Counted from the stretch's first letter, positions 2,184 to 41,450 are shown. The stretch: 64,000 bases of DNA from Enterobacillus tribolii (GCF_003363015.1 NZ_QRAP01000005.1:330820-394819), one strand, 5' to 3'. Numbers and translations are program-made. The notes: generated by a model not told the origin, from the sequence alone.

Positions 2184-4106
2184 TTAACTGCGGCTCAGGC
2201 AATCTTTGGCAACGCTGCGAAACTGCTCGAAATCTTTGCTGGCTAACAGGCGGCTGACCGCCCTTTCGCGCATAAACGTCACGAACAGATCGTAAATCGT
2301 CATCGCCTCTTCGTAGTCCTGCATACTGATCGCCAGCAAGAAAATGACGTAGGCGGTTTCCCCCGGCCCCCAGGCGATACCCTGCGGCGCCAGCACGGTG
2401 TACACCACGGTTTTCTTCGCCAGCAGCCCCAGCGAGTGCGGCAGCGCGATGCCTTCGCCCAGCATGGTGGAAACGATGCCTTCGCGCTCGACCAAAGACG
2501 GATGGAAATCCCCGCCGATGTATCCTTCCTGCTCCAGTTGCCGGCACAAGCGGTTGAACAGCTCGGCCTGGGTGATCGGCTTGTCGATGATGCAGAAGTG
2601 CGTCTCATCGAAAAATTTGTCCATCATATAAGGCCGGGTGCGGTCGATCAGCACCTGTTTCGCCAGTTGCTCCAGTTGGAAGCTGGTGGGGAACGGTGCA
2701 ACCAGCACCACCGGCTTATTCTTTTCCGCCACCTTCACCGTGCTGATCACAAAGTCTTCTTCAATTTGCTCCAGCTTTTCATACTCGCGCAAAGAATCAA
2801 CCTGCCGCACCATCAGTTGCGGAAACTCACGTTTAATCTTCGCTTCCAGCAAACGCACGGTAGAGATACCGGAATCACACACCAACAGCGCCTGCGGGTG
2901 GCGCTCGTAGCCAATATCGTAATGGCGTTCCAGCCCGACGCCGATATGCAGCACCAGGTAGCCGATTTCATTGTCGGTGATGGTGTAAGGAACGTCTTTT
3001 TCCCAGCTGGAAACCGCCGCCAGCGTGACGTCGTAGGCCAGCGGATAATGCTGCTTGATATGCTCCAGCAGCGGGTTCGGCATATTAATCTGGTACTTGG
3101 CGCGCGTCATCATGGTCGCGATATGGGAAAGCAGATCGCTGCGCAGTTGCTCATCCTCACGCAGATCGTAATTGTAGCGATCGTTGATAAAGCCAAGAAT
3201 ATAATCCACCAGCGCACGGTTTTCGTCCTGTCCGCCCGGTTGCAGGTTGGCGCCGTCGGTCATACGCCGCGCGGCGATCTGCACGCTGAGGTAATCCAGC
3301 TCGGCCTGCGGGATCTCGCAGCCGGTTTGCCGTTGCAGAATTTCGATCATCTGCGCGGCCGCCAGCTTCAGCGCCGGCTCCACGTCGCTGGCGCTGAACT
3401 CGCCCAGCAGATGGCCGGCGCGGATACGCTGCACAATGATGCCGCAGTAGATCATCAGATGCTGCTCGCCCTCATCGGTCATGCGAATCTGATGTTGCTG
3501 GATCACCGCATGAAGCTGTTCGCGCAGTTGGAGAAGGTCAACGCCGGGCAGCGCCAGCGCGTGCAGCTCCGGCAGGAAGTCATCCCCGCTCTGAAACTGG
3601 AACAACATGTTAGCCAGGCAGGCGCGCACCGCGTTCTCGCTGCCGAACAGACGCATACCGTGATGCGGCTTGCTCTCAATCGTCAGCCCGTACTTAGCGG
3701 CGATCTCACGCACTTCCGCCATATCGCTCTGCAACGAAGCCCGGCTGACAAACCAGCCATCGGCGATGTCATCCAGCTTGCACGCCTCGTCCTGCGCCAA
3801 AAAACGCAGCAACAAATGCACTACCCTGTCGCGTGCCGTACGCGGCAGCGTATTGCTCCGCATGTCCTGCTGCTGTTCCAGCGCGGCAAAACGCGATTCG
3901 TCGGTAATATCCAGGCGATATCCGCTGCCCCGCTGATGGACGAACTGCGCGCCGTAGTGGAGCAGAATCTCATTCAGAGCGTTAATGTCTGTGCGCACGG
4001 TACGGGTGGATACGTCAAAACGCCTGGCAAGCTCTTCCTGGGGCAAGGTTTCACCGCGGAGCGCGTCAAACAATTGGTTCAGACGTGGATATGGAAATTG
4101 AATCAT
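2184..4106 (-). CDS. PRD-domain transcriptional activator of MtlR/LicR/ManR type (HTH + two PRD + EIIB-like + EIIA-like domains)
   Basis: 640 aa. It has an N-terminal HTH (RRFDVSTRTVRTDINAL), PRD-like His-containing segments, and a C-terminal mannitol/fructose-type EIIA signature (LGEGIALPHS). It sits at the transcriptionally downstream end of the cluster at 4.5-11.7 kb. Confidence 0.75.
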   Translation of the reverse strand: MIQFPYPRLNQLFDALRGETLPQEELARRFDVSTRTVRTDINALNEILLHYGAQFVHQRGSGYRLDITDESRFAALEQQQDMRSNTLPRTARDRVVHLLLRFLAQDEACKLDDIADGWFVSRASLQSDMAEVREIAAKYGLTIESKPHHGMRLFGSENAVRACLANMLFQFQSGDDFLPELHALALPGVDLLQLREQLHAVIQQHQIRMTDEGEQHLMIYCGIIVQRIRAGHLLGEFSASDVEPALKLAAAQMIEILQRQTGCEIPQAELDYLSVQIAARRMTDGANLQPGGQDENRALVDYILGFINDRYNYDLREDEQLRSDLLSHIATMMTRAKYQINMPNPLLEHIKQHYPLAYDVTLAAVSSWEKDVPYTITDNEIGYLVLHIGVGLERHYDIGYERHPQALLVCDSGISTVRLLEAKIKREFPQLMVRQVDSLREYEKLEQIEEDFVISTVKVAEKNKPVVLVAPFPTSFQLEQLAKQVLIDRTRPYMMDKFFDETHFCIIDKPITQAELFNRLCRQLEQEGYIGGDFHPSLVEREGIVSTMLGEGIALPHSLGLLAKKTVVYTVLAPQGIAWGPGETAYVIFLLAISMQDYEEAMTIYDLFVTFMRERAVSRLLASKDFEQFRSVAKDCLSRS

Positions 4107-13205: not shown

Positions 13206-16200
13206 ATGAGCCGCCGCTTTTCGTTTCCGCTGTTTTCGCTTCTCCTGCTGACGTTCCTGTTTTGCGGTACGCCCCACACCCGCGCCGAAAACACCCCCGC
13301 GTCTTATCAGGAACTCATCCTGGTCGGTCACAGCGCCATGATGCTGGCCGACATAGATCTCAGCGACGACGAGTGGCGCTGGCTGCGCAAGAAGCGCGTC
13401 TTGCGGCTGGGCACCTGGGCGCCGAACTCTCCGCCCTACGACATTACCTCCGGCAGCCATGACTACAGCGGCATCAGCGCGGACTATGCCCAGCTTATCG
13501 GCCGCAACCTGAATATTCAGACCAAGGTTTACTACTATCCGGATTACAATTCGGCGCTGAACGCCATCCGCACCCGCCAGATTGATTATCTGGTGCTGGC
13601 CTCCGAGCGTGAACGCAACGAAGGGCTGATCCTGAGTACGCCCTACCTGCCTACCGTGCCCGCGATGGTGATGAACATTGATTCCACCAATACTCGGCGC
13701 GACCTGCGCATCGCCATCGATCCGCTGTACGCCGACAACGCAGAACTGCTGAAGCGCTATCCGGAGGCGACCCGGACGAAAGTAACGTCCACCCGCCACG
13801 CCCTGGAGTCGCTCTCGTTCCGCCAGCTCGATTTATTCGTCGGCGACATCGCCGGCGCCCAGTACATCGTCAATCAGGCCAACCTGCGCAACCTCAGCAT
13901 CCGGCCGATTCCCGACGTTAACATCAGAGGGTTTTCTTTCGCCGCCCTGCCGGAAAATCAAACCCTGATTACCATCTTCAACAAGCTGCTGGCGGCGATT
14001 CCCGGCAACATCCGGGCCGACATCCAGCGCCGCTGGGACGGCGGTGTTCCGCTGTCGATGGGGAACCGCAACCTGTTGTTCACCACGCTGGAGCGGCGCT
14101 GGCTGGAAAAACACCCGGCGCTGAAGGTCGCGATCGTCGACGATCTGGCCCCCATCAGCTTCTTCGACAGCAAGGGCACCCTGCGCGGCATTGCAGAAGA
14201 CATTATCACCGCCCTCGCCACCCGCACGGCCGTCCAGTTCATCCCCGAACGCTACGCCTCTTTGCACCAGGCGCAGGAAGCCATCGCCTCGGGCGAAGCG
14301 GATATCCTGATCAACTCGCTTTACAACAGCGCCAGCAAAAATGGCTTGCTGACCACCCGCACTTTTCTCTTTAACTCCTGGGCCGAAGTACGCCGCAAGA
14401 ATGAGCTTAAGCACAAAGGCCCGCCCCGGCTTGCCGTCCTGACAGGCGGAGAACCGGACGCCACACTGGCGGAGCTGTATCCGGGCAGCCCGGTAACGCG
14501 CCAGGAAACGCTGCGCGCCGCGCTGGAACAGCTGAGACTGGGATTGGCGGATATCGCCATTATGCCGCTGATTAACGCGGATTTTCTGGTGTCTCACTAC
14601 TATTCAGACACCCTGCGGATTAACGACAGCCTGGACGTCGAACCGGCCCGCTTCGTGCTGGCGGTCGCCGCCAACAACTACCCGCTGGCGACCATCCTCG
14701 ACAAAACGTTGCTGAACATCCCGCCGGAGGATCTGCATACCATCACCCATAACTGGTACACCAACGCCAACCTTCCCGGAAATATCGGCCCGCGCCCGGA
14801 AAAACGCGTTACCCCCTGGTGGCTGCCCGCCGCCGCCGGCGTACTGAGCCTGTTCTGCCTGCTGCTGGCCTGGTACGCTTTTCGCCTGAAACGGTACAAC
14901 CGCCAGATCGCCCGCAGCATTCTCGACACACTGCCGCTGCCCGCCTATGCCACGGATTTCAAAGGCCGTATCCGCTACGTCAACGATCGCTTCCTCAACG
15001 CGCTGTCGCTGCCCCGCGAAGAAACGCTGGGCAAACACCTCTCGACGCTGCTGCCGGTGCAATTGGACGACGCGCATACCCGCATTCTGCCCTCTTCCCG
15101 GCTGATCGAAACCGAGCGGGCCGACAAGAAAATCTCATTGCAGTTCTGGAATGAACTGATGCTGACGCCGGACGGCCAGGCCACCGGCTACATCGGCGGC
15201 TGGATCGACATTACCGCTCAGCAAAACCTGATCAGCGAACTGAAGAAGGCCAAAAGCGCGGCGGATAAAGCCAACCGCGCCAAGAGTACGTTCCTGGCGA
15301 CCATGAGCCATGAAATCCGCACGCCGATGAGCGCCATTATCGGCATGCTGGAACTGGTGCTGCGCCGGAAGTCGGCGAATCAGCCGGACTGGGACGCCAT
15401 CCACACCGCCTATGAGTCGGCGAACTCGCTGTTGATCCTGATCGGCGACATTCTGGACGTCTCGCGCATCGAATCCGACCGCCTGGTGCTGCACCCGGAG
15501 CGTGCCAATATCCGCCAGTTGATCGAGTCCGTGGCGGCGATGTTTGAAGGGCTGGCGCGCCAGCGGGGATTGCTGTTTCAGTTGGAGATCGACAGCGAAA
15601 TCAGCGGCGACGTGCTGATCGACCCCGTGCGCTTCAAGCAGATTGTTTCCAACCTGCTGAGCAACGCCATCAAATTCACCCAGTCCGGGCGCATCCTGCT
15701 GCGGGCCGCGCCCGAACGCGAAGACTCCACCAGCCTCTACCTGGTGCTGAGCGTGCAGGACAGCGGCTGCGGTATCGATCAGGACACGCAGTCCCGCCTG
15801 TTCCGCCCGTTCCAGCAGGGCGACATGCCGGCAACGCGCCAGGGCGCGGGGCTGGGGCTGTATATCTGCCGCACCCTGGCGCAGATGATGGAGGGCGACA
15901 TCACCCTGACCAGCCAGCCGGGCATCGGCACGGACGTCAATGTCCGGCTGCGCGTTCCCCGCCTTACGCACCTGGATCTGCTGCCGGTGTCTGCGCCGGC
16001 GCAAGCGCCGGAAAATCCGTCGCGCCTGATCCTGATCGTGGAAGATCATCCGGCCGGACGCATGCTGCTGACCCACCAGCTTCAGTACCTCGGCCACCGC
16101 GTCCTGTGCGCCAGCGATGGCGCACAGGCGCTGGCATTACTGGAACAACAGACGCCGGATCTGATCATCACCGACTGCAACATGCCGCGCATGAGCGGCT

Positions 16201-16703
16201 ACGAGCTAACGCGCACCCTGCGCCAGCGCTATGCCGCGGACATCACCATCTGGGGGCTGACCGCCAACGCCCAGCGCGCGGTGCGGGAAGAGTGCTTACA
16301 GGCAGGCATGGATGACTGCTTGTTCAAGCCCATCAGCATCAACACCCTCTCCGAAAAGCTGGCTACGCTGCCCGCCCTGCCGGTCCACGCCTGGCAGCAT
16401 TTCTCCCCGGAGCAGATACCCGCGGAGCTGCTGACACCGGAGAACCGGGAAGCCTTTGTCCGGCTGCAAATCGAGGCCATCGAAGAAGCGCTGCTCGTGC
16501 TTGACGGCGCCCCCGGCACGGCTACCCTGAAAGAAGCAATGCACAAGCTGCGCGGCGGGCTGTCGTTGATCGGCGCTGCGCCGCTGATCGCCCTGTGCCG
16601 GCAGGCCGAAGCCGCGCCGGAAGCCCCTCCCCTTGACGCACTGCGCCAGGAAGCCGGGCTACTGAGCGACGAGCTGAGCGCCTTTCAAAACATGTCATCA
16701 TGA
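13206..16703 (+). CDS. hybrid sensor histidine kinase with tandem periplasmic solute-binding domains (EvgS/BvgS-like)
   Basis: 1165 aa with a signal peptide, two SBP-like periplasmic regions, a TM segment, HisKA (MSHEIRTPM), HATPase (GLGLYICR), REC (LIVEDHP...DCNMP) and a C-terminal Hpt. Confidence 0.8.
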   Translation: MSRRFSFPLFSLLLLTFLFCGTPHTRAENTPASYQELILVGHSAMMLADIDLSDDEWRWLRKKRVLRLGTWAPNSPPYDITSGSHDYSGISADYAQLIGRNLNIQTKVYYYPDYNSALNAIRTRQIDYLVLASERERNEGLILSTPYLPTVPAMVMNIDSTNTRRDLRIAIDPLYADNAELLKRYPEATRTKVTSTRHALESLSFRQLDLFVGDIAGAQYIVNQANLRNLSIRPIPDVNIRGFSFAALPENQTLITIFNKLLAAIPGNIRADIQRRWDGGVPLSMGNRNLLFTTLERRWLEKHPALKVAIVDDLAPISFFDSKGTLRGIAEDIITALATRTAVQFIPERYASLHQAQEAIASGEADILINSLYNSASKNGLLTTRTFLFNSWAEVRRKNELKHKGPPRLAVLTGGEPDATLAELYPGSPVTRQETLRAALEQLRLGLADIAIMPLINADFLVSHYYSDTLRINDSLDVEPARFVLAVAANNYPLATILDKTLLNIPPEDLHTITHNWYTNANLPGNIGPRPEKRVTPWWLPAAAGVLSLFCLLLAWYAFRLKRYNRQIARSILDTLPLPAYATDFKGRIRYVNDRFLNALSLPREETLGKHLSTLLPVQLDDAHTRILPSSRLIETERADKKISLQFWNELMLTPDGQATGYIGGWIDITAQQNLISELKKAKSAADKANRAKSTFLATMSHEIRTPMSAIIGMLELVLRRKSANQPDWDAIHTAYESANSLLILIGDILDVSRIESDRLVLHPERANIRQLIESVAAMFEGLARQRGLLFQLEIDSEISGDVLIDPVRFKQIVSNLLSNAIKFTQSGRILLRAAPEREDSTSLYLVLSVQDSGCGIDQDTQSRLFRPFQQGDMPATRQGAGLGLYICRTLAQMMEGDITLTSQPGIGTDVNVRLRVPRLTHLDLLPVSAPAQAPENPSRLILIVEDHPAGRMLLTHQLQYLGHRVLCASDGAQALALLEQQTPDLIITDCNMPRMSGYELTRTLRQRYAADITIWGLTANAQRAVREECLQAGMDDCLFKPISINTLSEKLATLPALPVHAWQHFSPEQIPAELLTPENREAFVRLQIEAIEEALLVLDGAPGTATLKEAMHKLRGGLSLIGAAPLIALCRQAEAAPEAPPLDALRQEAGLLSDELSAFQNMSS

Positions 16704-16867
16704 ATGGACTACAGTGAAGTAGTCCATGCCTACCCCGAGCTTAGGAAGCAAGCCCATTGAGCTTACACAGGCACAGTACGTATCGTTATGGCTGAAGATT
16801 GCACGCCGGCGGATTAGCCGGTCGTGCGCCAATTGAAGTACTGATGACCTGAAATGGAGTTTACAAA

Positions 16868-28310: not shown

Positions 28311-29297
28311 ATGTATAACACTCGCATTTTTACCTTACTTTCAGCGCTGCTGCTGTACAGCGCTGGCGCCTGCGCCGCAGAAACATCCGCGGTGCAGGCA
28401 AGTCCAGACGATCAGCAAATCCGCGGGCTTGTCATGAGCTGGCAGGAGGCCCACCAGCAGCGCAACAACGAACTGCTGGCGTCGTTGTACGGAGCAGAGG
28501 TCGATTACTACGGCCAACACCTGGCGCACGAGCAGGTGATCGCCGCCAAACGGGCGTTTTTCAGTAAAGAAGAGAATAAAGAGTTCAGCCAGTCTATTGC
28601 CAGCCCGCTGCACATTGAGGGGATCGAAGGCAGCGCGGAAAGCGGCGAAGCGCCGGTCACGAACAGCAAGCAGGTTGAGTTTGTGAAGCGGGCAGGCAGT
28701 TCCGCCGATACCGTGCGCAACTACCCCTCTACGCTGCGGGTAAGCAAGGATGAGAGCGGAAAATGGAAAATCGTCGCCGAATCCGATGATATTACCGATC
28801 TGAACCTGAAGCAGCCCACCTACTCACGCGTCGTGCGCGGCAAGTTTGACGGTAAAACCGAGCAATATGCCTGGGTTCGCGGCCAGGACCCCATCAGCGG
28901 AAACTCCTGTACGCCGGACGGCGACTGCATTTGCAAGCTCTGGAACTCCGATCCCGCGGTCCAGCCCGTCAGCATTCCTTCCTGCATCGACGCCAGCCTG
29001 GCGGTGCTTCCCGGCCTTGACGGCACCGGCCGCGACCGCCTGCAGGTGATTCAGGACTGGTGGACCAGCGGATGGACGCTGGCGCGCCTCTACGACGTGC
29101 AGCAGACGCAGTGGATCCAGATCGTTCCCGCCTTCAGCACCAACGCGAACCAGCTGGAGGAAAGCGGCAACCGCATCCTGGTGGTAAGCAATCCCGCGCG
29201 CCCCGGCTACATCCGCATCAAAGTCACCCGTTTCGATCCCCAGACGGAAGAACTGCGCACCGAACAGCAGGATAAACCTCTGTTGGCATTACGTTAA
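28311..29297 (+). CDS. secreted hypothetical protein (N-terminal SnoaL/NTF2-like region, Cys-rich C-terminal half)
   Basis: 328 aa with a signal peptide (LLYSAGACAAE). No recognisable catalytic motif. Cys cluster C..DGDCIC...C. Confidence 0.45.
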   Translation: MYNTRIFTLLSALLLYSAGACAAETSAVQASPDDQQIRGLVMSWQEAHQQRNNELLASLYGAEVDYYGQHLAHEQVIAAKRAFFSKEENKEFSQSIASPLHIEGIEGSAESGEAPVTNSKQVEFVKRAGSSADTVRNYPSTLRVSKDESGKWKIVAESDDITDLNLKQPTYSRVVRGKFDGKTEQYAWVRGQDPISGNSCTPDGDCICKLWNSDPAVQPVSIPSCIDASLAVLPGLDGTGRDRLQVIQDWWTSGWTLARLYDVQQTQWIQIVPAFSTNANQLEESGNRILVVSNPARPGYIRIKVTRFDPQTEELRTEQQDKPLLALR

Positions 29298-29328: not shown

Positions 29329-30912
29329 TTATACCTGCCTGATGGTTTCCCAGCTCAACCCGAAACGCGCCAGATATTTACGCAGACGATCGGCATCGTT
29401 GGGCTGTTTCTTTTGTTCGCGCGACACGGCGAACAGCGTGCGCCCGGCTTCCGACAAGCTGGAAGACGCCCGGCACACTTTCAGCACGCAGGCCAGTTGG
29501 CTGCGGTCAAACATATCCACGTCACCCACGATGGCCGGCAGTTCCGTTTCCTCTTCCTGCCAGTCCAGGCGCAGCCGCCGGATTTCTTCATCAACCAGTG
29601 CGGCATTAACGCGCCCGTTTTCCGCCAACGTCGCCATACGGGTTACGGACGCCCCCAGCTCGCGGAAGTTTCCCCGCCAGATGGCCTGCGCCGAACAGGC
29701 GAATTCCAGATAACGCTGGCGGGCGTCTTTATCAAAACGCACCAACGTCTGCTGCTCCTGCCCGTAGCGGTTCAGCTCGAACGCCAGGTTCGGCTCAATA
29801 TCCTCACGCCGCTCGGCCAGGCCCGGCAACGGAAACGTCCACATGTTGATACGCGCATACAGATCCTCACGGAAATGCCCCTGCGCCACCCAGTGCCGCA
29901 TGTCGCGGTGCGTACCGGCAATCAGTTGAAAATCGCTGCTCACTTCTTTATCCGACCCGTAAGGCAGAAAACGTTTTTCCTCAATGGCCTTCAGCAGCAT
30001 CGCCTGCTCATCCAACCCCAGCTCACCGATTTCATCCAGAAACAGTACCCCGCCGTCCGCCTCGCGCAACAACCCGGTACGCGCCTGCTGCGCGCCGGTA
30101 AACGCGCCCCTGACATGGCCGAACAGGGTCGACATCGCGTTATCTCCGCGCAGCGTGGCGCAGTTCACCTCAACGAAGCGGCCCCCGACCTGATGGCGGG
30201 ACTGTTTAAGCTGAAATATCCGCCGCGCCAGGAACGACTTGCCCGCCCCGGTCGGGCCGGTCAGCAGCATCGGCGCGCGGGAGCGCAGCGCCACCCGCTC
30301 AATCTGATCGATCAGCGCGTTAAACGTCGGATTGCGGGTGGCAATGCCCGCCTTAAGGAAGGCCACCGAGGACTGCCGCTCGCGTTGAAAACGGCTGGTC
30401 AGCGCCGTATAACGGCTCAGATCGAGATCGATGACGGAATAAGTCCCGGCCGGCGATGCCTTGTCCTCCTCCTCCTGGCGCCCCACCGGTGAGGTTTGCA
30501 GCAGGCTGGCGGGCAGGTAGCGCGCTTCGGTCAGCAGGAACCAGCAAATCTGCGCCACGTGCGTCCCGGTAGTGATGTGTACCAGATACTCTTCGTTTTC
30601 GGTGTCGAAAGGATAGCGGGTCGCGAAATCCAGAAAAGCGGAGTACACCACTTCGAAATCCCAGGGGTCGTGCAGTTCCACGGCGTGTAAACGCACCTCC
30701 GTGGCGGGAGAAACTTCCGCGATGTCTTCACAGAGCCTTTGCGCCATGCCCAAATCACGCGGCTGATGCAGCAGCTCCAGCCGGTCGACGGGCAGATCCG
30801 GCTGCTGGCACAGCCCTACCGTCGGCCGCCATTTGTTCCAGCGATTATTACGCTTACCCCGTCTGTCGAGCACCGTTCCCAGCACCCCGATCACCACCCT
30901 GCGTTTCGTCAT
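29329..30912 (-). CDS. rtcR: sigma54-dependent transcriptional activator RtcR (CARF + AAA+ + HTH)
   Basis: 527 aa, colinear with E. coli RtcR (GTVLD..G....RW.KWRPT..LCQQ...IDRLELLH; [14 protein letters not shown]; GAFTGA; ESE-type [17 protein letters not shown]). Divergent from an rtcB-containing operon. Confidence 0.9.
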
Positions 30913-31047
30913 GATTTATCCATAAATATAAAAGGCGAGATAATTTTATAATAAATCGTCTCCCGTCAGAATCCCACCTTACGACCAGACTATTTTTAAT
31001 CAATTATTTATCAATGAGATAAAAAATATTTCCGCTGTTTTTCAAAA

Positions 31048-31064
31048 CTGGCACGTCTCTGGCA
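31048..31064 (+). promoter_or_regulatory. candidate sigma54 (-24/-12) promoter for the rtcB operon
   Basis: cTGGCACgtctctGGCAat has the -24 GG (31050-51) and -12 GC (31062-63) with the canonical 10-bp spacing. One mismatch to the TTGC -12 element. Located between rtcR and the operon. Confidence 0.5.
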
Positions 31065-31163
31065 ATAGTAATAGCGTCCGCACGCTGGAACTTGCCGGGG
31101 TTCAGAACCCCGCCGGCGCACCAGGAACGGCACGGGCCGTTTTCCGGTGGTACGTTCCGCCAG

Positions 31164-31224
31164 CGGTAGGACTTCGCGATAAATACAGGATTGCAGCAGG
31201 GTTCGAGTCCCCGCGATCGCACCA
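31164..31224 (+). ncRNA. tRNA-like element (acceptor stem + T-arm + ACCA, no anticodon arm) in the rtc operon leader; Y-RNA/YrlA-like candidate
   Basis: 5' strand GCGGTAG (31163-31169) pairs 6 of 7 positions with CGATCGC (31214-31220), including one G-U wobble and one mismatch. T-stem CAGGG/CCCCG (4 of 5 positions pair) flanks the T-loop TTCGAGT (31202-31208). Discriminator A then CCA (31222-31224). A further hairpin GCCGGGG..CCCCGCCGGC lies upstream (31103-31126). Confidence 0.35.
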
Positions 31225-31432
31225 TACTTTCAATATGGGATTGAACACATAAACGTAAAAAAACTCCGCGTAACCGGGCAGTTAACGGTTACCGCACCGG
31301 GCAGCCGGCAGAGATGCCGGGCCACGGGTAAAACGTCAGCCAGCAGCAACATCGTCCGCTGACCTTTCCCCCGCGGCTTCGCACAGACGTCCGCTCCCCG
31401 GCGCGCAGGAGAAATACCGATGGAGAATCAAC

Positions 31433-32569
31433 ATGATGGCTAAAAAAATTACAATACGGAAAGGTCAGTTAGGTTTGCTGTTAAAAGACGGCGATTACAC
31501 GCAGATACTGGAAGCCGGCGAACACCGCCTGAGCTGGTTTAATACGCCGCAGCTTGAGGTTGTTAACCTCAGCGACAACGAGGTTACCGCCGGACTGGCG
31601 GAGCAACTGCGCCGCTATCAACCGGCGTGGGTTGAAAAATATTGCCTGCGCGCCGACCTGGGAGAAAACGAAGTCGGCCTGCGCTTCGAAGACGACGTGT
31701 TGCAGGAAATCCTGCCGCCCTCTTCGCGCCGCCTGTTCTGGAAAAACGGCGAAGGCCAGCGCATTGAACGCATCAGCACTGAGGCCGCCCGCGTGCCGGA
31801 CGCCATCGTCAGCGCGCTGTTGCAGCCGAAGCTGCGCAACCGCGCGGTAAAAGGCGCGGAAGGCGTTCTGCTGGTGCAGGTTCCGGCCTGGCACGCCGGC
31901 GTACTGAAGGTCGACGGCGTAACCCAGGACTTACTGGCGCCGGGCGTCAGCGGCTACTGGCGTTTCAACCACGTGGTGGAAGCCGACGTGGTGGATACCC
32001 GCCTGCAGGTGCTGGAAGTCAGCGGTCAGGAAATCCTGACGCGCGACAAGGTGAACCTGCGCCTGAACCTGGCGGCCAACTGGCGCTATCGCGACGTACT
32101 GCAGGCCTTCGCCCAGCTCACCAAGCCGGTCGATCACCTGTACCGCGAGTTACAGTTCGCCCTGCGCGAAGCGGTCGGCACCCGTTCGCTCGACGAGCTG
32201 CTCGAAAACAAGCAGATCATCGACGAGGTGGTCAGCGCCCAAGTCGCGGCGCGCATGGCGGAGTACGGCATCGACCTCGCTTCGCTGGGAGTGAAAGATA
32301 TCGTCCTGCCGGGCGACATGAAGACCATCCTGTCACGGTTGGTGGAAGCGGAAAAATCGGCACAGGCCAACGTCATCCGCCGCCGTGAAGAAACCGCGGC
32401 GACCCGTTCGCTGCTGAACACGGCGAAAGTGATGGAAAACAACCCGGTGGCGCTGCGTCTGAAAGAGCTGGAAACGCTGGAAAAAGTAGCGGAACGCATT
32501 GATAAAATCTCTGTTTTCGGCGGCCTGGATCAGGTGTTGCAGGGATTGATACAGATTAAAGGAGCATAA
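31433..32569 (+). CDS. SPFH/band-7 (slipin/HflC-like) domain protein
   Basis: 378 aa with a band-7 core (VDTRLQVLEVSGQEILTRDKVNLRLN...) and a C-terminal coiled-coil (LSRLVEAEKSAQANVIRRREE...). Sits between the sigma54 promoter and rtcB, ending 4 nt before rtcB. Confidence 0.7.
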   Translation: MMAKKITIRKGQLGLLLKDGDYTQILEAGEHRLSWFNTPQLEVVNLSDNEVTAGLAEQLRRYQPAWVEKYCLRADLGENEVGLRFEDDVLQEILPPSSRRLFWKNGEGQRIERISTEAARVPDAIVSALLQPKLRNRAVKGAEGVLLVQVPAWHAGVLKVDGVTQDLLAPGVSGYWRFNHVVEADVVDTRLQVLEVSGQEILTRDKVNLRLNLAANWRYRDVLQAFAQLTKPVDHLYRELQFALREAVGTRSLDELLENKQIIDEVVSAQVAARMAEYGIDLASLGVKDIVLPGDMKTILSRLVEAEKSAQANVIRRREETAATRSLLNTAKVMENNPVALRLKELETLEKVAERIDKISVFGGLDQVLQGLIQIKGA

Positions 32570-32573
32570 CAAA

Positions 32574-33800
32574 ATGAAAAATAACGATTACCAGATCATG
32601 ACGTCAGAAAACGCCGCCCCGGTGAAGATGTGGACCCAGGGCGTACCGGTGGACCCGGGAGCGCGCGATCAGTTGCTGAACACGGCGAAAATGCCGTTTA
32701 TCTTCCGCCATATGGCCGTGATGCCGGACGTGCATCTGGGTAAAGGATCGACCATCGGCAGCGTGATCCCAACGCGCGGGGCGATTATCCCCGCAGCGGT
32801 CGGCGTGGATATCGGCTGCGGAATGATCGCGGTGCGAACGTCGCTGAACGCCGCCGATCTGCCGGATAACCTGTACGGGATCCGCAGCGCGATCGAGCAG
32901 GCCGTTCCGCACGGACGTACCGTTAACCGCAGCGGACGCGATAAAGGCTCCTGGAACCGGCCGCCGGAAGCGGTGGACCGCCACTGGGCGTCGTTGCTGC
33001 CGGGCTTCAAGCGCCTGACCGATAAGTATCCGGACCTGCTGAAAACCAACAACTATCAGCACCTGGGAACGTTGGGAACCGGTAACCACTTTATCGAACT
33101 GTGTCTGGATGAACAGAATCAGGTATGGGTGATGCTGCACAGCGGATCGCGCGGCGTAGGTAACGCCATCGGCAACCTGTTCATTACGCTGGCGCAGGAA
33201 GACATGCACCAGCATATCGCCAACCTGCCGGACCGTAACCTGGCCTACTTCGAAGAAGGCAGCCGCCACTTTGACGACTATATCGAAGCGGTAAGCTGGG
33301 CGCAGGAATACGCGCGCCGTAACCGCGAAGTGATGATGCAGCACGTGCTGGAGGCGCTGGCGCGCGAAATTCCCAAGCCGTTCACCGCGGTACAGGAAGC
33401 CGTGAACTGCCACCATAACTACGTACAGCGCGAGCGTCACTTCGGTGAATCGGTGCTGGTAACGCGTAAAGGCGCGGTGTCGGCGCAAAAAGGCGAAATG
33501 GGGATTATCCCCGGTTCGATGGGTGCCAAAAGTTACATCGTGCGCGGGCTGGGTAACGAAGAGAGCTTCTGTTCCTGCAGCCACGGCGCGGGACGGGTAA
33601 TGAGCCGTACTGCGGCCAAAAAGCACTTCACGCTGGAAGACCAGAAACGCGCCACGGCACACGTGGAATGCCGTAAAGACAGCGACGTGATCGATGAAAT
33701 TCCGATGGCGTACAAAGACATCGACGCCGTAATGGCGGCGCAGTCTTCGCTGGTGGAAATCGTGCATACCCTGCGCCAGGTGGTGTGTGTGAAAGGATAA
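32574..33800 (+). CDS. rtcB: RNA-splicing ligase RtcB
   Basis: 408 aa, colinear with E. coli RtcB (TSENAAPVKMWTQGVPV; MPDVHLGKGSTIGSVIPT; GTGNHFIEL; IPGSMGAKSYIVRG; SCSHGAGRVMSR). Confidence 0.9.
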   Translation: MKNNDYQIMTSENAAPVKMWTQGVPVDPGARDQLLNTAKMPFIFRHMAVMPDVHLGKGSTIGSVIPTRGAIIPAAVGVDIGCGMIAVRTSLNAADLPDNLYGIRSAIEQAVPHGRTVNRSGRDKGSWNRPPEAVDRHWASLLPGFKRLTDKYPDLLKTNNYQHLGTLGTGNHFIELCLDEQNQVWVMLHSGSRGVGNAIGNLFITLAQEDMHQHIANLPDRNLAYFEEGSRHFDDYIEAVSWAQEYARRNREVMMQHVLEALAREIPKPFTAVQEAVNCHHNYVQRERHFGESVLVTRKGAVSAQKGEMGIIPGSMGAKSYIVRGLGNEESFCSCSHGAGRVMSRTAAKKHFTLEDQKRATAHVECRKDSDVIDEIPMAYKDIDAVMAAQSSLVEIVHTLRQVVCVKG

Positions 33801-33819
33801 AATCATTAAGGAAAGAGAA

Positions 33820-34611
33820 ATGGAATGGGAAAGCGGCGGCGTCAGCGCCGCCATGCGCACCCGGGTCACGGAGACCCTGCGCATACTGGAGCAAGAACAC
33901 AAGGTGCGGGTGCTTTATGCCTGCGAGTCAGGCAGCCGCGGCTGGGGGTTCGCCTCGCCGGACAGCGATTACGACGTACGCTTTATCTACGTCCACCAGC
34001 CGGAGTGGTATCTGCGCGTTGACGCGCCGCGCGACGTGATAGAGATGCCCATCGACGATGAGCTGGACGTCTGCGGCTGGGAGTTACGCAAAACGCTGGG
34101 CCTGCTCAAACGCGCCAACCCGACGCTGATGGAATGGCTGGACTCCCCCGTCGTCTATCAGCAGGAGAATGAAACCGCCGCCGCGCTCAAAGCGCTGGCG
34201 CCGGCCTATTTCTCCGGGCCGCGCGCCCGTTATCACTATTTGTCGATGGCGCGCAAAAACTTTCGCGGCTATTTGCAGGGCGAACAGGTACGGCTGAAAA
34301 AGTATTTCTACGTGCTGCGCCCCCTGCTGGCCGTGCGTTGGATAGAGGCCGGCAAAGGCGTACCGCCGATGCGCTTCGATAGCCTGATGGCGGGAACCGT
34401 CACAGACCCGGCGCTGCGGGCGGAAATCGACGATCTGCTGGCGCTGAAGCGCCGCTCAGGCGAAGCGCAGTACGGCGTCCGGCGTGAACGCATCCACGCG
34501 TTCATCCTGGATGCCCTGGAGGAAACGCGGAGCATACCGCTGCCGCACGATCGCGAGCGGCGTGATACGCACGAGCTGGATCGCTTACTGCACGACGTCG
34601 TGCTGGGGTAA
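33820..34611 (+). CDS. Pol-beta-superfamily nucleotidyltransferase (minimal NTase with helical C-domain)
   Basis: 263 aa with the NTase signature ESGSRGWGFASPDSDYDVRFI (GS...D.D). Occupies the position usually held by rtcA downstream of rtcB. Confidence 0.65.
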   Translation: MEWESGGVSAAMRTRVTETLRILEQEHKVRVLYACESGSRGWGFASPDSDYDVRFIYVHQPEWYLRVDAPRDVIEMPIDDELDVCGWELRKTLGLLKRANPTLMEWLDSPVVYQQENETAAALKALAPAYFSGPRARYHYLSMARKNFRGYLQGEQVRLKKYFYVLRPLLAVRWIEAGKGVPPMRFDSLMAGTVTDPALRAEIDDLLALKRRSGEAQYGVRRERIHAFILDALEETRSIPLPHDRERRDTHELDRLLHDVVLG

Positions 34612-34707
34612 ATCGTGCCATAGCGCCGGACTAAACGCCGGTTCTATGGCACAGCCATTTGACAGCCTGAGGAGGCGCTCAGTAAGATCGTCTAAAAGTA
34701 AATCATT

Positions 34708-35169
34708 TTGGTACGGCTTATGGCGCAAACTTCTGCCTGTTCCCCTGAGGACATTCCGTTAGGACGGCTTATCCACCAGGTCAATCAATATAAGGATCGT
34801 CTGCTGACGCAAATCCTGGCGGCTCAGGATATTACGGCCTCGCAGTTCAAAGTGCTGGCGTCCATCCACTTTGAGCACTGCCAGACGCCGGTTGAAATCA
34901 GCCGGTTACTGTCCATCGACGGCGGTGCAATGACCCGTCTGCTGGATCGTATGGTCAAGAAAGGATTGCTCAAGCGTCAGCCGGCCCCCGACGACAAGCG
35001 CAAAGTGCTGCTGAGCCTTACCGACTACAGCGAAGAGCTGTGTAATAACTGCCGCCATCAGATCGCGGCCGGAATGCATGACATTCTGACGGAACGTCTC
35101 TCGCAAGAGGAAGTCCTCCAGTTAAAAAGGCTGCTGTGGCGTTTGCTGCCCCATGAAGGGAAGGAGTAA
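34708..35169 (+). CDS. MarR-family transcriptional regulator
   Basis: 153 aa with a winged-HTH core (ITASQFKVLASIHFEHCQTPVEISRLLSIDGGAMTRLLDRMVKKGLLKR). Alternative start MAQTS at 34720. Confidence 0.7.
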   Translation: MVRLMAQTSACSPEDIPLGRLIHQVNQYKDRLLTQILAAQDITASQFKVLASIHFEHCQTPVEISRLLSIDGGAMTRLLDRMVKKGLLKRQPAPDDKRKVLLSLTDYSEELCNNCRHQIAAGMHDILTERLSQEEVLQLKRLLWRLLPHEGKE

Positions 35170-35184
35170 TCCTCCCCCGCATGT

Positions 35185-36588
35185 TTACGCCTTGAACGTC
35201 ATCCACGGACGCAGGCGCGCCACCCGCTGAATCAGTCCTGCTTCCTCCTGCGCATCGATAACCGGTCCAATCCGTTTATACGCCGCCGGCGCCTCCTCCA
35301 CCCGACGCTCTTCGCGCAGCGTCACGCAATGCCACGGCAGCGCGTCATCCGCCGTTGGGCGCAGCGCCCGCACAGCCTGACGGCGCATGCGGCGACCGGC
35401 GCCATGACTACAGGAATTCAGCCATTCCGCATTACCCAACCCGCTGACGACGTACGAATAATCCCCCATCGAGCCGGGGATCAGCGCCAAATCGCCCGCC
35501 GCCGCCGGCGTCGCGCCTTTGCGGTGGATATTCATCCCGCCTTCGCGCAGCACCACGTTATGCGGAACGTCCACCGTCAGACGGGAATCGTCCTGCTGAA
35601 AAACATCCGCCAGACACTGACGCACCATTTCCGCCAGCGCCACCCGGTTCAGCCAGGCATAGCGTGCGGCGGCGCCCATCGCCTGCAAATACTCATCGGC
35701 CAGAGCGCCCGTCAACCCGTACAAACCGGAAGCAGGATGTTTTTCTCCCGCCGGCCACTGGTTACGGGCGTTGTCCATCCAACGCTGGCCGACGTAAAAC
35801 CCGACGTCGCGTGAACCGCTGTGAATCATAATGACCACATCCCCTTCACGCAGCCCATACTGCCAGGCGGCGCGGCGTTCAAGAATGCCGTCCACCACCT
35901 GCAGCTCAACGAAATGATTCCCCGCGCCCGGCGTTCCCAGCGAAGGATCGCGCAGCACATCGCGCGCGGTCGTCGTCAGCGCCGGCGGTGCCCAGGCGGC
36001 CTTACCGCCGAAGTCCGTCAGCCCGATGCAGGCATCGACTTCACGTTGCAGACGATCGCCATCTGCCGACGCCCACAGCCCCTGCTTCAGCAAACGATCC
36101 AGGCAGGCCTGCGGCCCGTCGTCGAACAGCGCGCGAAACGCCGCGCCGGTCATCGGGATATCACGCCCGTTCTGCAACAACGCGTGCGTAAGCCTCCGGC
36201 ATACGTCCTCACGCCGCGTTTCGAGCTGCGCCAGCGTCAGGCCGGTCGTCAGCAAACGCATGCCGCAGTTGATGTCCGTGCCGATAGCCGCCGGAATCAC
36301 CATATCCGGCGTGGTTGCCACGATGCTGCCCACCGGCGCAATGGCGCCGGGATGGAAATCCGGCGTAGCGCAGGCTTTGCACACATGGCCTTCGCTGCCC
36401 GGTACGCGCACGGCGGCAAAGTTCATCAGTTGCGTCACCGCTTTTTCTTCCAGCGGCAGCGCAGCGGGCAACAGCACGCTGGCGGATACGCCGTCGGTGA
36501 TGCGGGTCAGGGATACAATGTCATTTACGCGGGATACACGGATCCCTTTGCGTAAAAACGCTTTCTCAATTCTTGAGATGGAATACAT
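35185..36588 (-). CDS. RtcB-family RNA ligase paralog (RtcB2-like, N-terminally extended)
   Basis: RtcB signatures are present (GTDINCGMRLL; GAGNHFVELQ; IPGSMGDYSYVV; SCSHGAGRRM). The start is uncertain, taken as ATG 36588 (MYSISR...). The ORF track extends to 36744. Confidence 0.7.
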   Translation of the reverse strand: MYSISRIEKAFLRKGIRVSRVNDIVSLTRITDGVSASVLLPAALPLEEKAVTQLMNFAAVRVPGSEGHVCKACATPDFHPGAIAPVGSIVATTPDMVIPAAIGTDINCGMRLLTTGLTLAQLETRREDVCRRLTHALLQNGRDIPMTGAAFRALFDDGPQACLDRLLKQGLWASADGDRLQREVDACIGLTDFGGKAAWAPPALTTTARDVLRDPSLGTPGAGNHFVELQVVDGILERRAAWQYGLREGDVVIMIHSGSRDVGFYVGQRWMDNARNQWPAGEKHPASGLYGLTGALADEYLQAMGAAARYAWLNRVALAEMVRQCLADVFQQDDSRLTVDVPHNVVLREGGMNIHRKGATPAAAGDLALIPGSMGDYSYVVSGLGNAEWLNSCSHGAGRRMRRQAVRALRPTADDALPWHCVTLREERRVEEAPAAYKRIGPVIDAQEEAGLIQRVARLRPWMTFKA

Positions 36589-36850
36589 CAGAAACTGCCT
36601 CTGAAAAAGACATAACAAAATCACCCCATGAAAACGGGGCATGTTGTCTTTCCTGTCAGCAGCATTACGGGGAAAGGATCGGCAGTGTGGCGGAAACCGT
36701 AGCGGAAAGCAAGCACCGGGCTTTTCCCCTTTTTCATCCCGCAATAACCGTCACGACAGAAACCACCGCCGGTATTTAATTTTTCCCCGCTTCCGGGGTT
36801 AGGATAAGGTCAGTTTCGGCACGGCCGATGTTAACGACGGAGAAACGGCG

Positions 36851-40261: not shown

Positions 40262-41221
40262 TCAATCTTCGTTATAGTCAGGGACAATGTTACACCATTC
40301 ATCTCCATCGAAAGTCCAGACAGCAGAGGATGAAGCAATTAACATCATAGAATTACTGCTGTCCATCGAGCCTGATGGATGAATCACTTCCCCATTGCAA
40401 ATAAAAAAGTCTTTAATACTATTCCCATCCCAAATGAAAAAGTCTGCCTCCCCGATCCCCCAAAGCATATTATTAAACCAGCACAAATCATTAAGCTCAT
40501 CATGCAATTCAATAATATCTATTTTTTCCCAGGTATTCTTTTTTCCCCGCCAAATTGCGCTTCCAGATGCCACATAAACAAAACCATCACCAGCACACAC
40601 AACATTTTTCAATTTATCATTTGTTGGAAATCCACATTGCTGCCATGTTTGGCCATCAAACCACCAAATGTCTCCTTTCCCACCAACCGCATAGACTTCA
40701 CTTTCAGAAAATCCCGATATATCTTCAAATCCGTAATCAAAAATATCTTCTCTGTCACGGTCAATTTTAAAATGGATTCCATTTACCATTGGCCGCCAAT
40801 CATTAATTCCATACCGTTTTGATACTAATCGCTTTAAACCTACTGCCCAGGCGTATCCATCAATCATTTTGACTTTTCGGATGAGAGCACTGTCATTCCC
40901 GCCAACCAACTCCGGTTCCCAGGTTGTTTTCCCCCCACCGCTGGGTAAGGCAAACCCACCAATACTATCAACCATGAGGCCTTGTGATACAGGTTTTTGA
41001 GATGCGCCAAGCACACTGGAAAACGCCTCATCAAATTGTATCGATGAGTAACCCAGTTCATCATCCCCGGCGTCTTCAATAAGAGTTACTTGCCTCATAT
41101 CATCATCTGTACAGTTTTCAGCCTTAAGATAAATGATATCGCTTTCCCTAATGGCGCAGTCGGTAATAATGTAATTGTTCAGTATCTTTTTCCAATCTTT
41201 TTTTGCCAGCTTCTTTTTCAT
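40262..41221 (-). CDS. hypothetical protein with repeated W/F-x-F-D-G-x-x-W blade-like motifs (low-GC islet)
   Basis: ~319 aa from ATG 41221 (GGAG RBS). Repeats: DIWWFDGQTWQQ, AIWRGKKNTWEK, FFIWDGNSIKDF, AVWTFDGDEWCN. No signal peptide. AT-rich codon usage unlike the flanking genes. Confidence 0.5.
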   Translation of the reverse strand: MKKKLAKKDWKKILNNYIITDCAIRESDIIYLKAENCTDDDMRQVTLIEDAGDDELGYSSIQFDEAFSSVLGASQKPVSQGLMVDSIGGFALPSGGGKTTWEPELVGGNDSALIRKVKMIDGYAWAVGLKRLVSKRYGINDWRPMVNGIHFKIDRDREDIFDYGFEDISGFSESEVYAVGGKGDIWWFDGQTWQQCGFPTNDKLKNVVCAGDGFVYVASGSAIWRGKKNTWEKIDIIELHDELNDLCWFNNMLWGIGEADFFIWDGNSIKDFFICNGEVIHPSGSMDSSNSMMLIASSSAVWTFDGDEWCNIVPDYNED

Positions 41222-41450
41222 TTTATTCTCCGTATTTACTAGCAGTCCTGTCATCTGGAGCCTAACCCTGGTGATTTTTCTATCTGGGAACTAATTGCTC
41301 TGATCCTTTTAGCCCTCCCACCTCAAGATCTGTCAGTTTATCCTTATCTACCAACACCAGACTCTATTTCTATGCACCATTCACTGAATCACCCTGACTA
41401 ATAAATAAGAAACCGAGCATTAATCCGGCTTCTTATGATAAATCAAAAAG

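Follow-up and report, generated by a model that had tools for sequence, protein, structure and literature searches.

An operon with a predicted role in RNA repair is found in a 64-kb stretch of Enterobacillus tribolii DNA (the window), whose protein families were assigned by profile searches (Pfam, NCBIfam, and PADLOC), with scores that reach or exceed the curated cutoffs. It comprises a sigma-54 promoter, a structured leader of ~360 nucleotides (nt), and genes for an SPFH (Band-7) protein, the RNA ligase RtcB, and the nucleotidyltransferase RlaP, with the regulatory gene rtcR transcribed divergently. The annotation of the source genome is generic for all three operon proteins (SPFH/slipin, RtcB family, and nucleotidyltransferase domain-containing). 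Very probably, this locus is an RtcR- and sigma-54-controlled RNA-repair operon of the Band-7/b7a-tRNA/RtcB/RlaP type and works in the steps proposed below. The operon type is already known as a bioinformatic prediction: according to bioRxiv 10.1101/312249, where Burroughs and Aravind (2016) are quoted, a Band-7 gene lies beside RtcB and is preceded by a tRNA-like RNA, "b7a-tRNA." The layout that an earlier note on this DNA put forward as a variant had, going by that quotation, been described in 2016, and since RlaP has recently been characterized, the window adds a member and not a concept. The additions are incremental: a degenerate, covarying leader, a second leader domain, and modules without rtcB, including many in Escherichia coli. 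The main features are as follows (aa, amino acids); the coordinates and sizes of the open reading frames (ORFs) are exactly those of the earlier note.

29329-30912, minus strand: rtcR, 527 aa, transcribed divergently from the operon
31049-31064, plus strand: predicted sigma-54 (-24/-12) promoter TGGCACGTCTCTGGCA (TGGCAC-N5-TGGCA), from a pattern match and conservation
31084-31225, plus strand: leader domain 1 (degenerate b7a-tRNA), from covariation
31300-31398, plus strand: leader domain 2, containing an invariant GCUUCG and an inserted hairpin that varies, ending ~25 nt before the ribosome-binding site
31433-32569, plus strand: SPFH/Band-7 gene, 378 aa
32574-33800, plus strand: rtcB, 408 aa, 4 nt after the SPFH gene
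33820-34611, plus strand: rlaP (nucleotidyltransferase), 263 aa, 19 nt after rtcB
34615-34652, plus strand: stable hairpin that lies just past the rlaP stop codon and lacks a U-tract

The rtcR product is, by its profile matches, a sigma-54 enhancer-binding activator with an N-terminal CARF-like RtcR domain. The latter (PF06956) covers residues 3 to 189 (E = 8e-84) and is followed by a Sigma54_activat domain (PF00158; residues 191 to 358, E = 5e-50). Residues 3 to 526 match the NCBIfam equivalog NF038308 (840 bits vs a cutoff of 650), and the PADLOC model RtcR--CARF_AAA_HTH is matched with 881 bits. RtcR is the sole component that PADLOC recognizes at the locus, so the operon is not a catalogued defense system. 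The promoter pattern TGGCAC-N5-TGGCA has a single match in the 64 kb (0.14 expected by chance). It lies 137 nt from the rtcR start codon and is kept in orthologous loci; E. coli and 11 enteric genera have it with its relative position unchanged. Judged from its -12 position, transcription is predicted to start near 31075.

The SPFH, rtcB, and rlaP genes, each with its own Shine-Dalgarno sequence, look like one transcription unit. Promoter, leader, and the three genes are joined into this unit because the intergenic gaps measure just 4 and 19 nt and internal signals do not exceed chance: sigma-70-like sites across the region number 3 (2.4 expected) and terminator-like sites 8 (10 expected), and the plus strand between the leader and the SPFH gene has no promoter- or terminator-like match. 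For separate transcription of the SPFH and nucleotidyltransferase genes, which the earlier note had named as the finding that would break up its operon, there are thus chance-level sites only. The hairpin that follows rlaP (minimum free energy, -34.3 kcal/mol; z = -3.65; equaled by none of 200 shuffles) is probably the 3' end of the operon or a stabilizer.

RtcB matches PF01139 over its full length (profile positions 1 to 426, E = 1.6e-132) and is 72 to 84% identical to the RtcB proteins of related loci. Its translation carries the motifs DIGCGM, GTGNHFIE, HSGSRG, and CSHGAGR, which we take, after E. coli RtcB, to contribute the metal-binding Cys and His residues and the GMP-accepting His. The identities of RtcR and RtcB, and the RtcR/sigma-54 RNA-repair operon read from them in the earlier note, are borne out by these matches and by the promoter.

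The 263-aa protein, for which the same note had called for profile searches, belongs to RlaP (PF10127, "RNA repair pathway DNA polymerase beta family"), with 335.9 bits against a cutoff of 23 (E = 2.2e-100, profile positions 1 to 249 of 249), and not to a CCA-adding family. The name, as PMC12776372 relates, was given by Burroughs and Aravind (2016) for the operonic association of the family with RNA ligases. The expected GS...D.D motif is present, and each of its residues (G38 and S39, D48, D50, and D52, and D83) is shared by 95% or more of 22 RlaP sequences. RlaP needs three strictly conserved Asp residues (PMC12776372), for which there are four candidates: D48, D50, D52, and D83. A structure of PfRlaP has been published; no sequence relative of RlaP was found in the PDB copy searched. 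The RlaP proteins of Pseudomonas fluorescens and Pseudomonas aeruginosa, ~60% identical to the one in the window, attach one or two nucleoside monophosphates to the 3'-OH ends of RNA, with a preference for substrates that mimic cleaved tRNA (PMC12776372, a December 2025 preprint). Family membership supports a similar role for the protein in the window, as a putative RNA 3'-end-extending enzyme, and the suggestion that it acts on RNA 3' ends agrees with the family fit and with the Pseudomonas activity. The accompanying idea of CCA-like addition does not: the reported activity is the addition of 1 to 2 nt to damaged ends, and no signature of a CCA-adding family was found in the protein.

The SPFH protein contains a Band_7 domain (PF01145; residues 149 to 320, E = 7e-29). 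It consists of an N-terminal β-rich module of ~145 aa, a stomatin-like SPFH domain (residues 145 to 290), and long C-terminal helices (residues 294 to 357), all of which are seen in its AlphaFold2 model (predicted local distance difference test score, 83.7). Stomatin is the top match in a PDB profile search (E = 6e-35), and Foldseek places stomatin, HflK/C, and prohibitin at the top of the matches to the model, together with the major vault protein, which gives longer alignments. The subfamily includes 534 cluster representatives at E ≤ 1e-30, most of which align over residues 1 to 376; the N-terminal module occurs one to three times in the homologs, being repeated two or three times in the longer ones. 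By analogy with the structures of stomatin and HflK/C, the protein probably assembles into a ring or cage. It is predicted to be soluble: the sequence has no transmembrane or hydrophobic segment (best 19-residue Kyte-Doolittle mean of 1.2; usual threshold, ~1.6), its N terminus is hydrophilic, and the hydropathy plot lacks the N-terminal transmembrane or hairpin anchor of the stomatin, HflK/C, and QmcA type. The earlier proposal that it organizes the system at the membrane is contradicted by this profile. No RNA-binding domain was found in the protein.

Comparison of 11 enteric genera, including the window, reveals the structure of leader domain 1, which sits ~210 nt before the SPFH start codon on the same strand. 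Its elements, all on the plus strand, are the following (bp, base pairs).

31084-31088/31160-31164, plus strand: P1, which closes a junction holding P2 and P3+P4
31097-31100/31108-31111, plus strand: P2 hairpin, loop UUCAGAA
31114-31122/31149-31159, plus strand: P3, which forms a long two-part hairpin with P4
31124-31131/31136-31145, plus strand: P4
31176-31180/31216-31220, plus strand: P5, a tentative acceptor-like stem of 5 bp read by eye, stacked on the T-arm and followed by ACCA at 31221-31224
31196-31201/31209-31214, plus strand: canonical T-arm, loop UUCGAGU, with a covarying stem

Compensatory changes affect 22 of the 30 pairs (RNAalifold), and 94.8% of the alignment cells are paired, vs 37 to 49% when the partners are slid; none of 500 shuffles reaches the observed percentage paired, the number of compensatory pairs or of compensatory cells, or the covariation score. 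The structure is visible by comparison alone, because single-sequence folding of the leader is no better than that of shuffled sequences (z = -0.6 and -1.0). Besides the T-loop GGTTCGAGTCC at 31200-31210, the window has no match to the motif GGUUCGAnUCC (0.20 expected). An equivalent of P5 can be formed, by eye, from differing sequences in about 8 of 10 genera, E. coli not being among them. Another pairing, with CCAGCGGUAG as the D-loop and the 5' end paired with GCGAUCGC as a 7-bp acceptor stem, was excluded, as covariation assigns these bases to P1 and P3.

The earlier description of the leader as tRNA-like holds for the T-arm and the covariation and fails for any resemblance to a cloverleaf. 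ARAGORN finds no tRNA in the window, and Rfam has nothing there at gathering thresholds; at E ≤ 10 the leader gives chance-level matches, such as mascRNA at 16 bits, none of them to tRNA. A covariance model of the second tandem unit of b7a-tRNA (R2, built from 30 units) scores 64 bits in Gilliamella and finds in the window leader the T-arm alone (10.8 bits, E = 0.41). Because R2 matches just the T-arm, we regard the leader as a degenerate descendant of b7a-tRNA, in which domain 1 appears to keep only that arm and a possible acceptor-like stem, with the D-arm and the anticodon arm lost.

Leader domain 2 has compensatory changes in 16 of its 20 pairs (RNAalifold) and matches no Rfam family. With its covariance model (R1), every enteric locus reaches 68 to 84 bits and Gilliamella 31 bits, whereas 70 other loci give no match. 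The domain thus appears to be previously undescribed and limited to Enterobacterales and Gilliamella.

Elsewhere the RNA is easier to recognize. Of 83 loci, 66 carry the T-loop motif in sense orientation in the 600 nt before the SPFH gene, and 48 of these carry it twice; its density there is 2.29 per kb vs a background of 0.0037 per kb (~600-fold). In Pseudomonas and beta-proteobacteria these T-loops belong to two tandem cloverleaf-shaped units with short acceptor stems and, often, tetraloops for anticodon loops. The b7a-tRNA-like elements of other loci are often called as tRNA by ARAGORN, and many pass the Rfam tRNA threshold. RNA and SPFH gene stay paired in proteobacteria, cyanobacteria, and Chloroflexota, even as their other partners change.

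It is highly improbable that these tRNA-like sequences are non-functional relics, i.e., decayed tRNA genes or integration-site scars. Compensatory changes maintain the leader helices, the position and strand are constant relative to the promoter and the SPFH gene, and the T-loop motif shows the sense-strand upstream enrichment given above. A relic would account for the degeneracy of the window copy and for the blank ARAGORN and Rfam results, and the module does stand in chromosomal contexts that differ from genus to genus, which suggests mobility.

Some of the loci have tRNA genes of their own. In locus L060 (1530-5667), an array of normal-looking tRNA genes lies directly upstream of the b7a-tRNA-SPFH module (25 ARAGORN calls, 24 of them in the array) and contains a GOLLD RNA (RF02032, 153.5 bits, 2330-2817). 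Similar upstream arrays are found in L040, L058, L016, L030, L027, L021, L075, L063, and L072, in several of which the module includes RtcB. An upstream RtcR is missing from all five array loci whose SPFH protein is at least 55% identical to that of the window (L016, L021, L027, L030, and L040).

A different role for the leader, as a cis-acting element or a decoy and not as a subunit of an SPFH particle, would make it a processing or stability element, a translational regulator of SPFH, or a tRNA mimic acting as a sink for anticodon or acceptor nucleases. We consider this unlikely, with several observations in its favor. The leader would be made as a 5' untranslated region, since no terminator lies between it and the SPFH gene; domain 2 ends close to the ribosome-binding site; a decoy role has been proposed for the analogous tRNA-like domain of YrlA (PMC7790460); and the SPFH protein has no RNA-binding domain that could be found. 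However, the ribosome-binding site is not sequestered in conserved structure, and an RNA-SPFH pairing that outlasts changes of partners across phyla fits a protein-RNA partnership better than a promoter-proximal regulator.

The partners were compared in 80 loci from a scan at one genome per species. The SPFH protein is at least 55% identical to that of the window in 40 species, of which 30 have a divergent RtcR upstream, 30 have RtcB downstream, and 20 have RlaP downstream. Enteric species link SPFH with RlaP in 10 of 11 cases and with RtcB in 4 of 11. Outside Enterobacterales (SPFH identity of 55 to 65%), RtcB follows in 26 of 29 loci and RlaP in 10 of 29. RtcA follows in 15 non-enteric loci and, by tblastn, in 0 enteric ones. 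The absence of rtcA and rsr seen in the earlier note holds within the window, where tblastn with a Pfam-verified RtcA (from L014; Pfam RTC, E = 2.6e-76) has no match, 38 larger ORFs scanned include no RTC or TROVE domain, and Rfam matches no Y RNA-type family.

The replacement of rtcA by the nucleotidyltransferase, as then proposed, is ruled against by the co-occurrence of RlaP and RtcA in at least 10 loci and by Pseudomonas and beta-proteobacterial loci with both downstream of the same SPFH-rtcB core; in the Pseudomonas rtc operons, rlaP stands between rtcB and rtcA (PMC12776372). Because the two co-occur elsewhere, the loss of rtcA would be a separate trait of the enteric branch. This co-occurrence also bears on the full model of the earlier note, in which the SPFH protein anchors the system to the membrane and the nucleotidyltransferase stands in for RtcA, rebuilding CCA-like 3' ends for RtcB. 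Most characterized SPFH proteins are membrane associated, the window does lack rtcA, and the leader ends in ACCA after its possible acceptor-like stem. Nevertheless, the model is improbable, given the low hydropathy and hydrophilic N terminus of the SPFH protein, the Pfam placement of the enzyme in RlaP and not in a CCA-adding family, and a chemical mismatch, in that RlaP yields 3'-OH ends and RtcB needs 3'-phosphate.

The layout of the window, rtcR / leader-SPFH-rtcB-rlaP, recurs in Citrobacter and Xenorhabdus, the latter with an added Tpt1/KptA gene. Hafnia, three Klebsiella species, Superficieibacter, Lonsdalea, and Mangrovibacter (L002-L004, L008-L013, and L052) have rtcR / leader-SPFH-rlaP, with rtcB cleanly absent and an SPFH-rlaP gap as short as the SPFH-rtcB gap elsewhere. 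In 1,625 of 5,426 complete E. coli genomes (~30%), the interval from yjbD to lysC holds promoter, leader, SPFH, and rlaP and has no rtcR or rtcB next to them. The linkage of the SPFH and nucleotidyltransferase genes to rtcB, on which the earlier note had staked its operon, therefore breaks down in 7 of 11 enteric species and in E. coli, whereas SPFH, RlaP, leader, and promoter stay together.

Several of these loci include further genes. Xenorhabdus miraniensis (L005, 8001-12263) encodes an SPFH protein of 524 aa with a duplicated N-terminal module and the Tpt1/KptA 2'-phosphotransferase after rlaP; an AAA_21/RloB pair is found ~3 kb further downstream (15041-16812). In one E. coli record (NZ_CP026085.1, labeled DH5alpha, possibly wrongly in view of its 4.83 Mb; L090, 4690-6928), a zeta-toxin family gene adjoins the rlaP of a promoter-leader-SPFH-RlaP module. 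A small treble-clef zinc-finger protein (PF13451), absent from the window, is encoded between SPFH and rtcB in Pseudomonas or beta-proteobacterial loci (L014, 7169-7567; L018, L025, L026, L029, L032, and L041). In an Acidovorax locus (L033), an RNase P RNA gene (RF00010, 210 bits, 3290-3629, minus strand) immediately adjoins rtcR.

The enteric modules without an adjacent rtcB suggest that SPFH and RlaP may not need RtcB. Leader, SPFH, and RlaP might then form an autonomous module, with RtcB as an optional passenger, that acts on tRNA-like RNAs in 3'-end surveillance or extension or against toxins or phages, using a ligase in trans or none. The seven enteric taxa that retain rtcR and a short SPFH-RlaP gap without rtcB, the E. 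coli modules with neither rtcR nor rtcB beside them, and the preference of enteric loci for RlaP over RtcB all favor such autonomy. These modules, together with the mismatch between the 3'-OH products of RlaP and the 3'-phosphate substrates of RtcB, make it a serious alternative, although we would call it possible and somewhat unlikely. Outside Enterobacterales, it is RtcB that usually follows SPFH and RlaP that is often missing; the sigma-54 promoter is kept even where no rtcR is adjacent; and in ~90% of the E. coli genomes a part of the query has a match elsewhere, which is probably the canonical rtcB, so that a ligase is likely to be available in trans in this species.

We favor a mechanism in which all of the parts found in the window act together. 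RtcR, by orthology, would sense RNA damage through its CARF-like domain and open the promoter at 31049-31064; this response is established in Salmonella, where the signal is tRNA fragments with 2',3'-cyclic phosphate ends (PMC7790460). One transcript from near 31075 would carry the leader, whose structure comes from covariation, and SPFH, rtcB, and rlaP, whose co-transcription is suggested by the short gaps and the lack of internal signals. RtcB would reseal 3'-phosphate or 2',3'-cyclic phosphate ends with 5'-OH ends, the reaction established for its family, and RlaP, if it acts like its Pseudomonas orthologs, would restore the one or two nucleotides that over-trimmed RNAs have lost from their 3' ends. 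The stomatin-like protein, soluble and probably arranged as a ring or cage, would bind the tRNA-derived leader; for tRNA-shaped substrates it would be a scaffold, a chamber, or a decoy. This binding step is proposed because of the near-invariable coupling of gene and RNA across phyla, its one basis.

Five points weigh against this mechanism. The authors of the RlaP study state that its 3'-OH products are not directly joinable by RtcB (PMC12776372). As described above, rtcB is not adjacent in most of the enteric species or in E. coli, and the leader is not tRNA-shaped. According to bioRxiv 10.1101/312249, b7a-tRNA has never been experimentally validated, and the name was found in no further paper of the literature searched. 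Finally, deletion of paFlo8, which encodes the SPFH protein PaFlo8 of P. aeruginosa and is embedded in its rtc locus, gave no phenotype in the standard assays of its authors (PMC13086221).

As a tentative and rather doubtful extension, a soluble cage of stomatin-like and vault-like form might have the bipartite leader as its RNA subunit and make up, with RlaP, a self-sufficient particle for repair or surveillance of tRNA ends, without a dedicated RtcB. With such a particle, the lack of rtcB from the modules of Klebsiella, Hafnia, and ~30% of E. coli genomes would be accounted for. The structure of the leader, its domain 2, and the stable leader-SPFH-RlaP core could make the role of the Band-7 protein and its RNA tractable, and E. 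coli offers an easy genetic system, because many of its strains carry leader, SPFH, and RlaP.

The surroundings of the operon include a second rtcB. Upstream, a 328-aa ORF whose N terminus is hydrophobic and signal-like abuts the 3' end of rtcR, from which it is separated by a terminator-like hairpin with a T-run; its product matches nothing in Pfam, NCBIfam, or PADLOC. Two more ORFs in the window lack a Pfam match at E ≤ 1e-5.

28311-29297, plus strand: ORF abutting rtcR, 328 aa
29305-29326: terminator-like hairpin with a T-run
34659-34688, plus strand: sigma-70-like promoter for marR, matching at 10 of 12 positions
34708-35169, plus strand: marR, one flank of the second rtcB
35185-36642, minus strand: second, divergent RtcB paralog, 485 aa as called by NCBI; homologs suggest ~467 aa
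36851-37732, plus strand: PHP-domain phosphoesterase, the other flank, divergent from the second rtcB
40262-41254, minus strand: ORF, 330 aa
59733-60683, minus strand: ORF, 316 aa

The nearest relatives of the second RtcB (69 to 71% identical) come from Pseudomonas, Chitinivorax, and Variovorax and not from enterics. The PHP-domain gene was considered as its conserved partner and excluded in three orthologous contexts, since the relatives of this RtcB stand alone or adjoin Tpt1/KptA.

Among known systems, the closest are the Band-7, b7a-tRNA, and RtcB (plus RlaP) operons of Burroughs and Aravind, which, as far as they are quoted, have the same gene set and order, an upstream tRNA-like RNA, and an RtcR regulator. 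Compared with that description, the RNA in the window lacks the D-arm and the anticodon arm and is unrecognizable as a tRNA, a second leader domain is present, and RtcA is absent. The rtc locus of P. aeruginosa and P. fluorescens (rtcR / SPFH PaFlo8-rtcB-rlaP-rtcA) has the regulator, the SPFH subfamily, RtcB, and RlaP in the same order as the window, and the SPFH proteins of Pseudomonas loci L014, L026, L038, and L043 are 57 to 61% identical to that of the window. Unlike the window, it has rtcA after rlaP, two well-formed tandem tRNA-like units, and often the treble-clef zinc protein between SPFH and rtcB. E. coli K-12 rtcR / rtcBA shares RtcR, the sigma-54 promoter, and RtcB (408 aa) but includes RtcA and lacks SPFH, RlaP, and the leader RNA. 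The Salmonella rsr-yrlBA-rtcBA operon resembles the window in RtcR/sigma-54 control, in RtcB, and in having a noncoding RNA that mimics tRNA transcribed together with a scaffold protein that is putatively ring-shaped. However, its scaffold is TROVE/Ro, its RNA is YrlA/YrlB, RtcA is present, and RlaP is absent. The eukaryotic vault, which combines the major vault protein with vault RNA, has similar β-rich N-terminal repeats, an SPFH-like shoulder, a long helix, and a small structured RNA, and Foldseek aligns the SPFH model with the major vault protein over 420 to 490 columns (E ~1e-10). Should the SPFH protein prove to assemble into an RNA-containing cage, bacteria would have in it a counterpart of vaults and Ro/Y-RNA particles that defends against tRNA-cleaving toxins.

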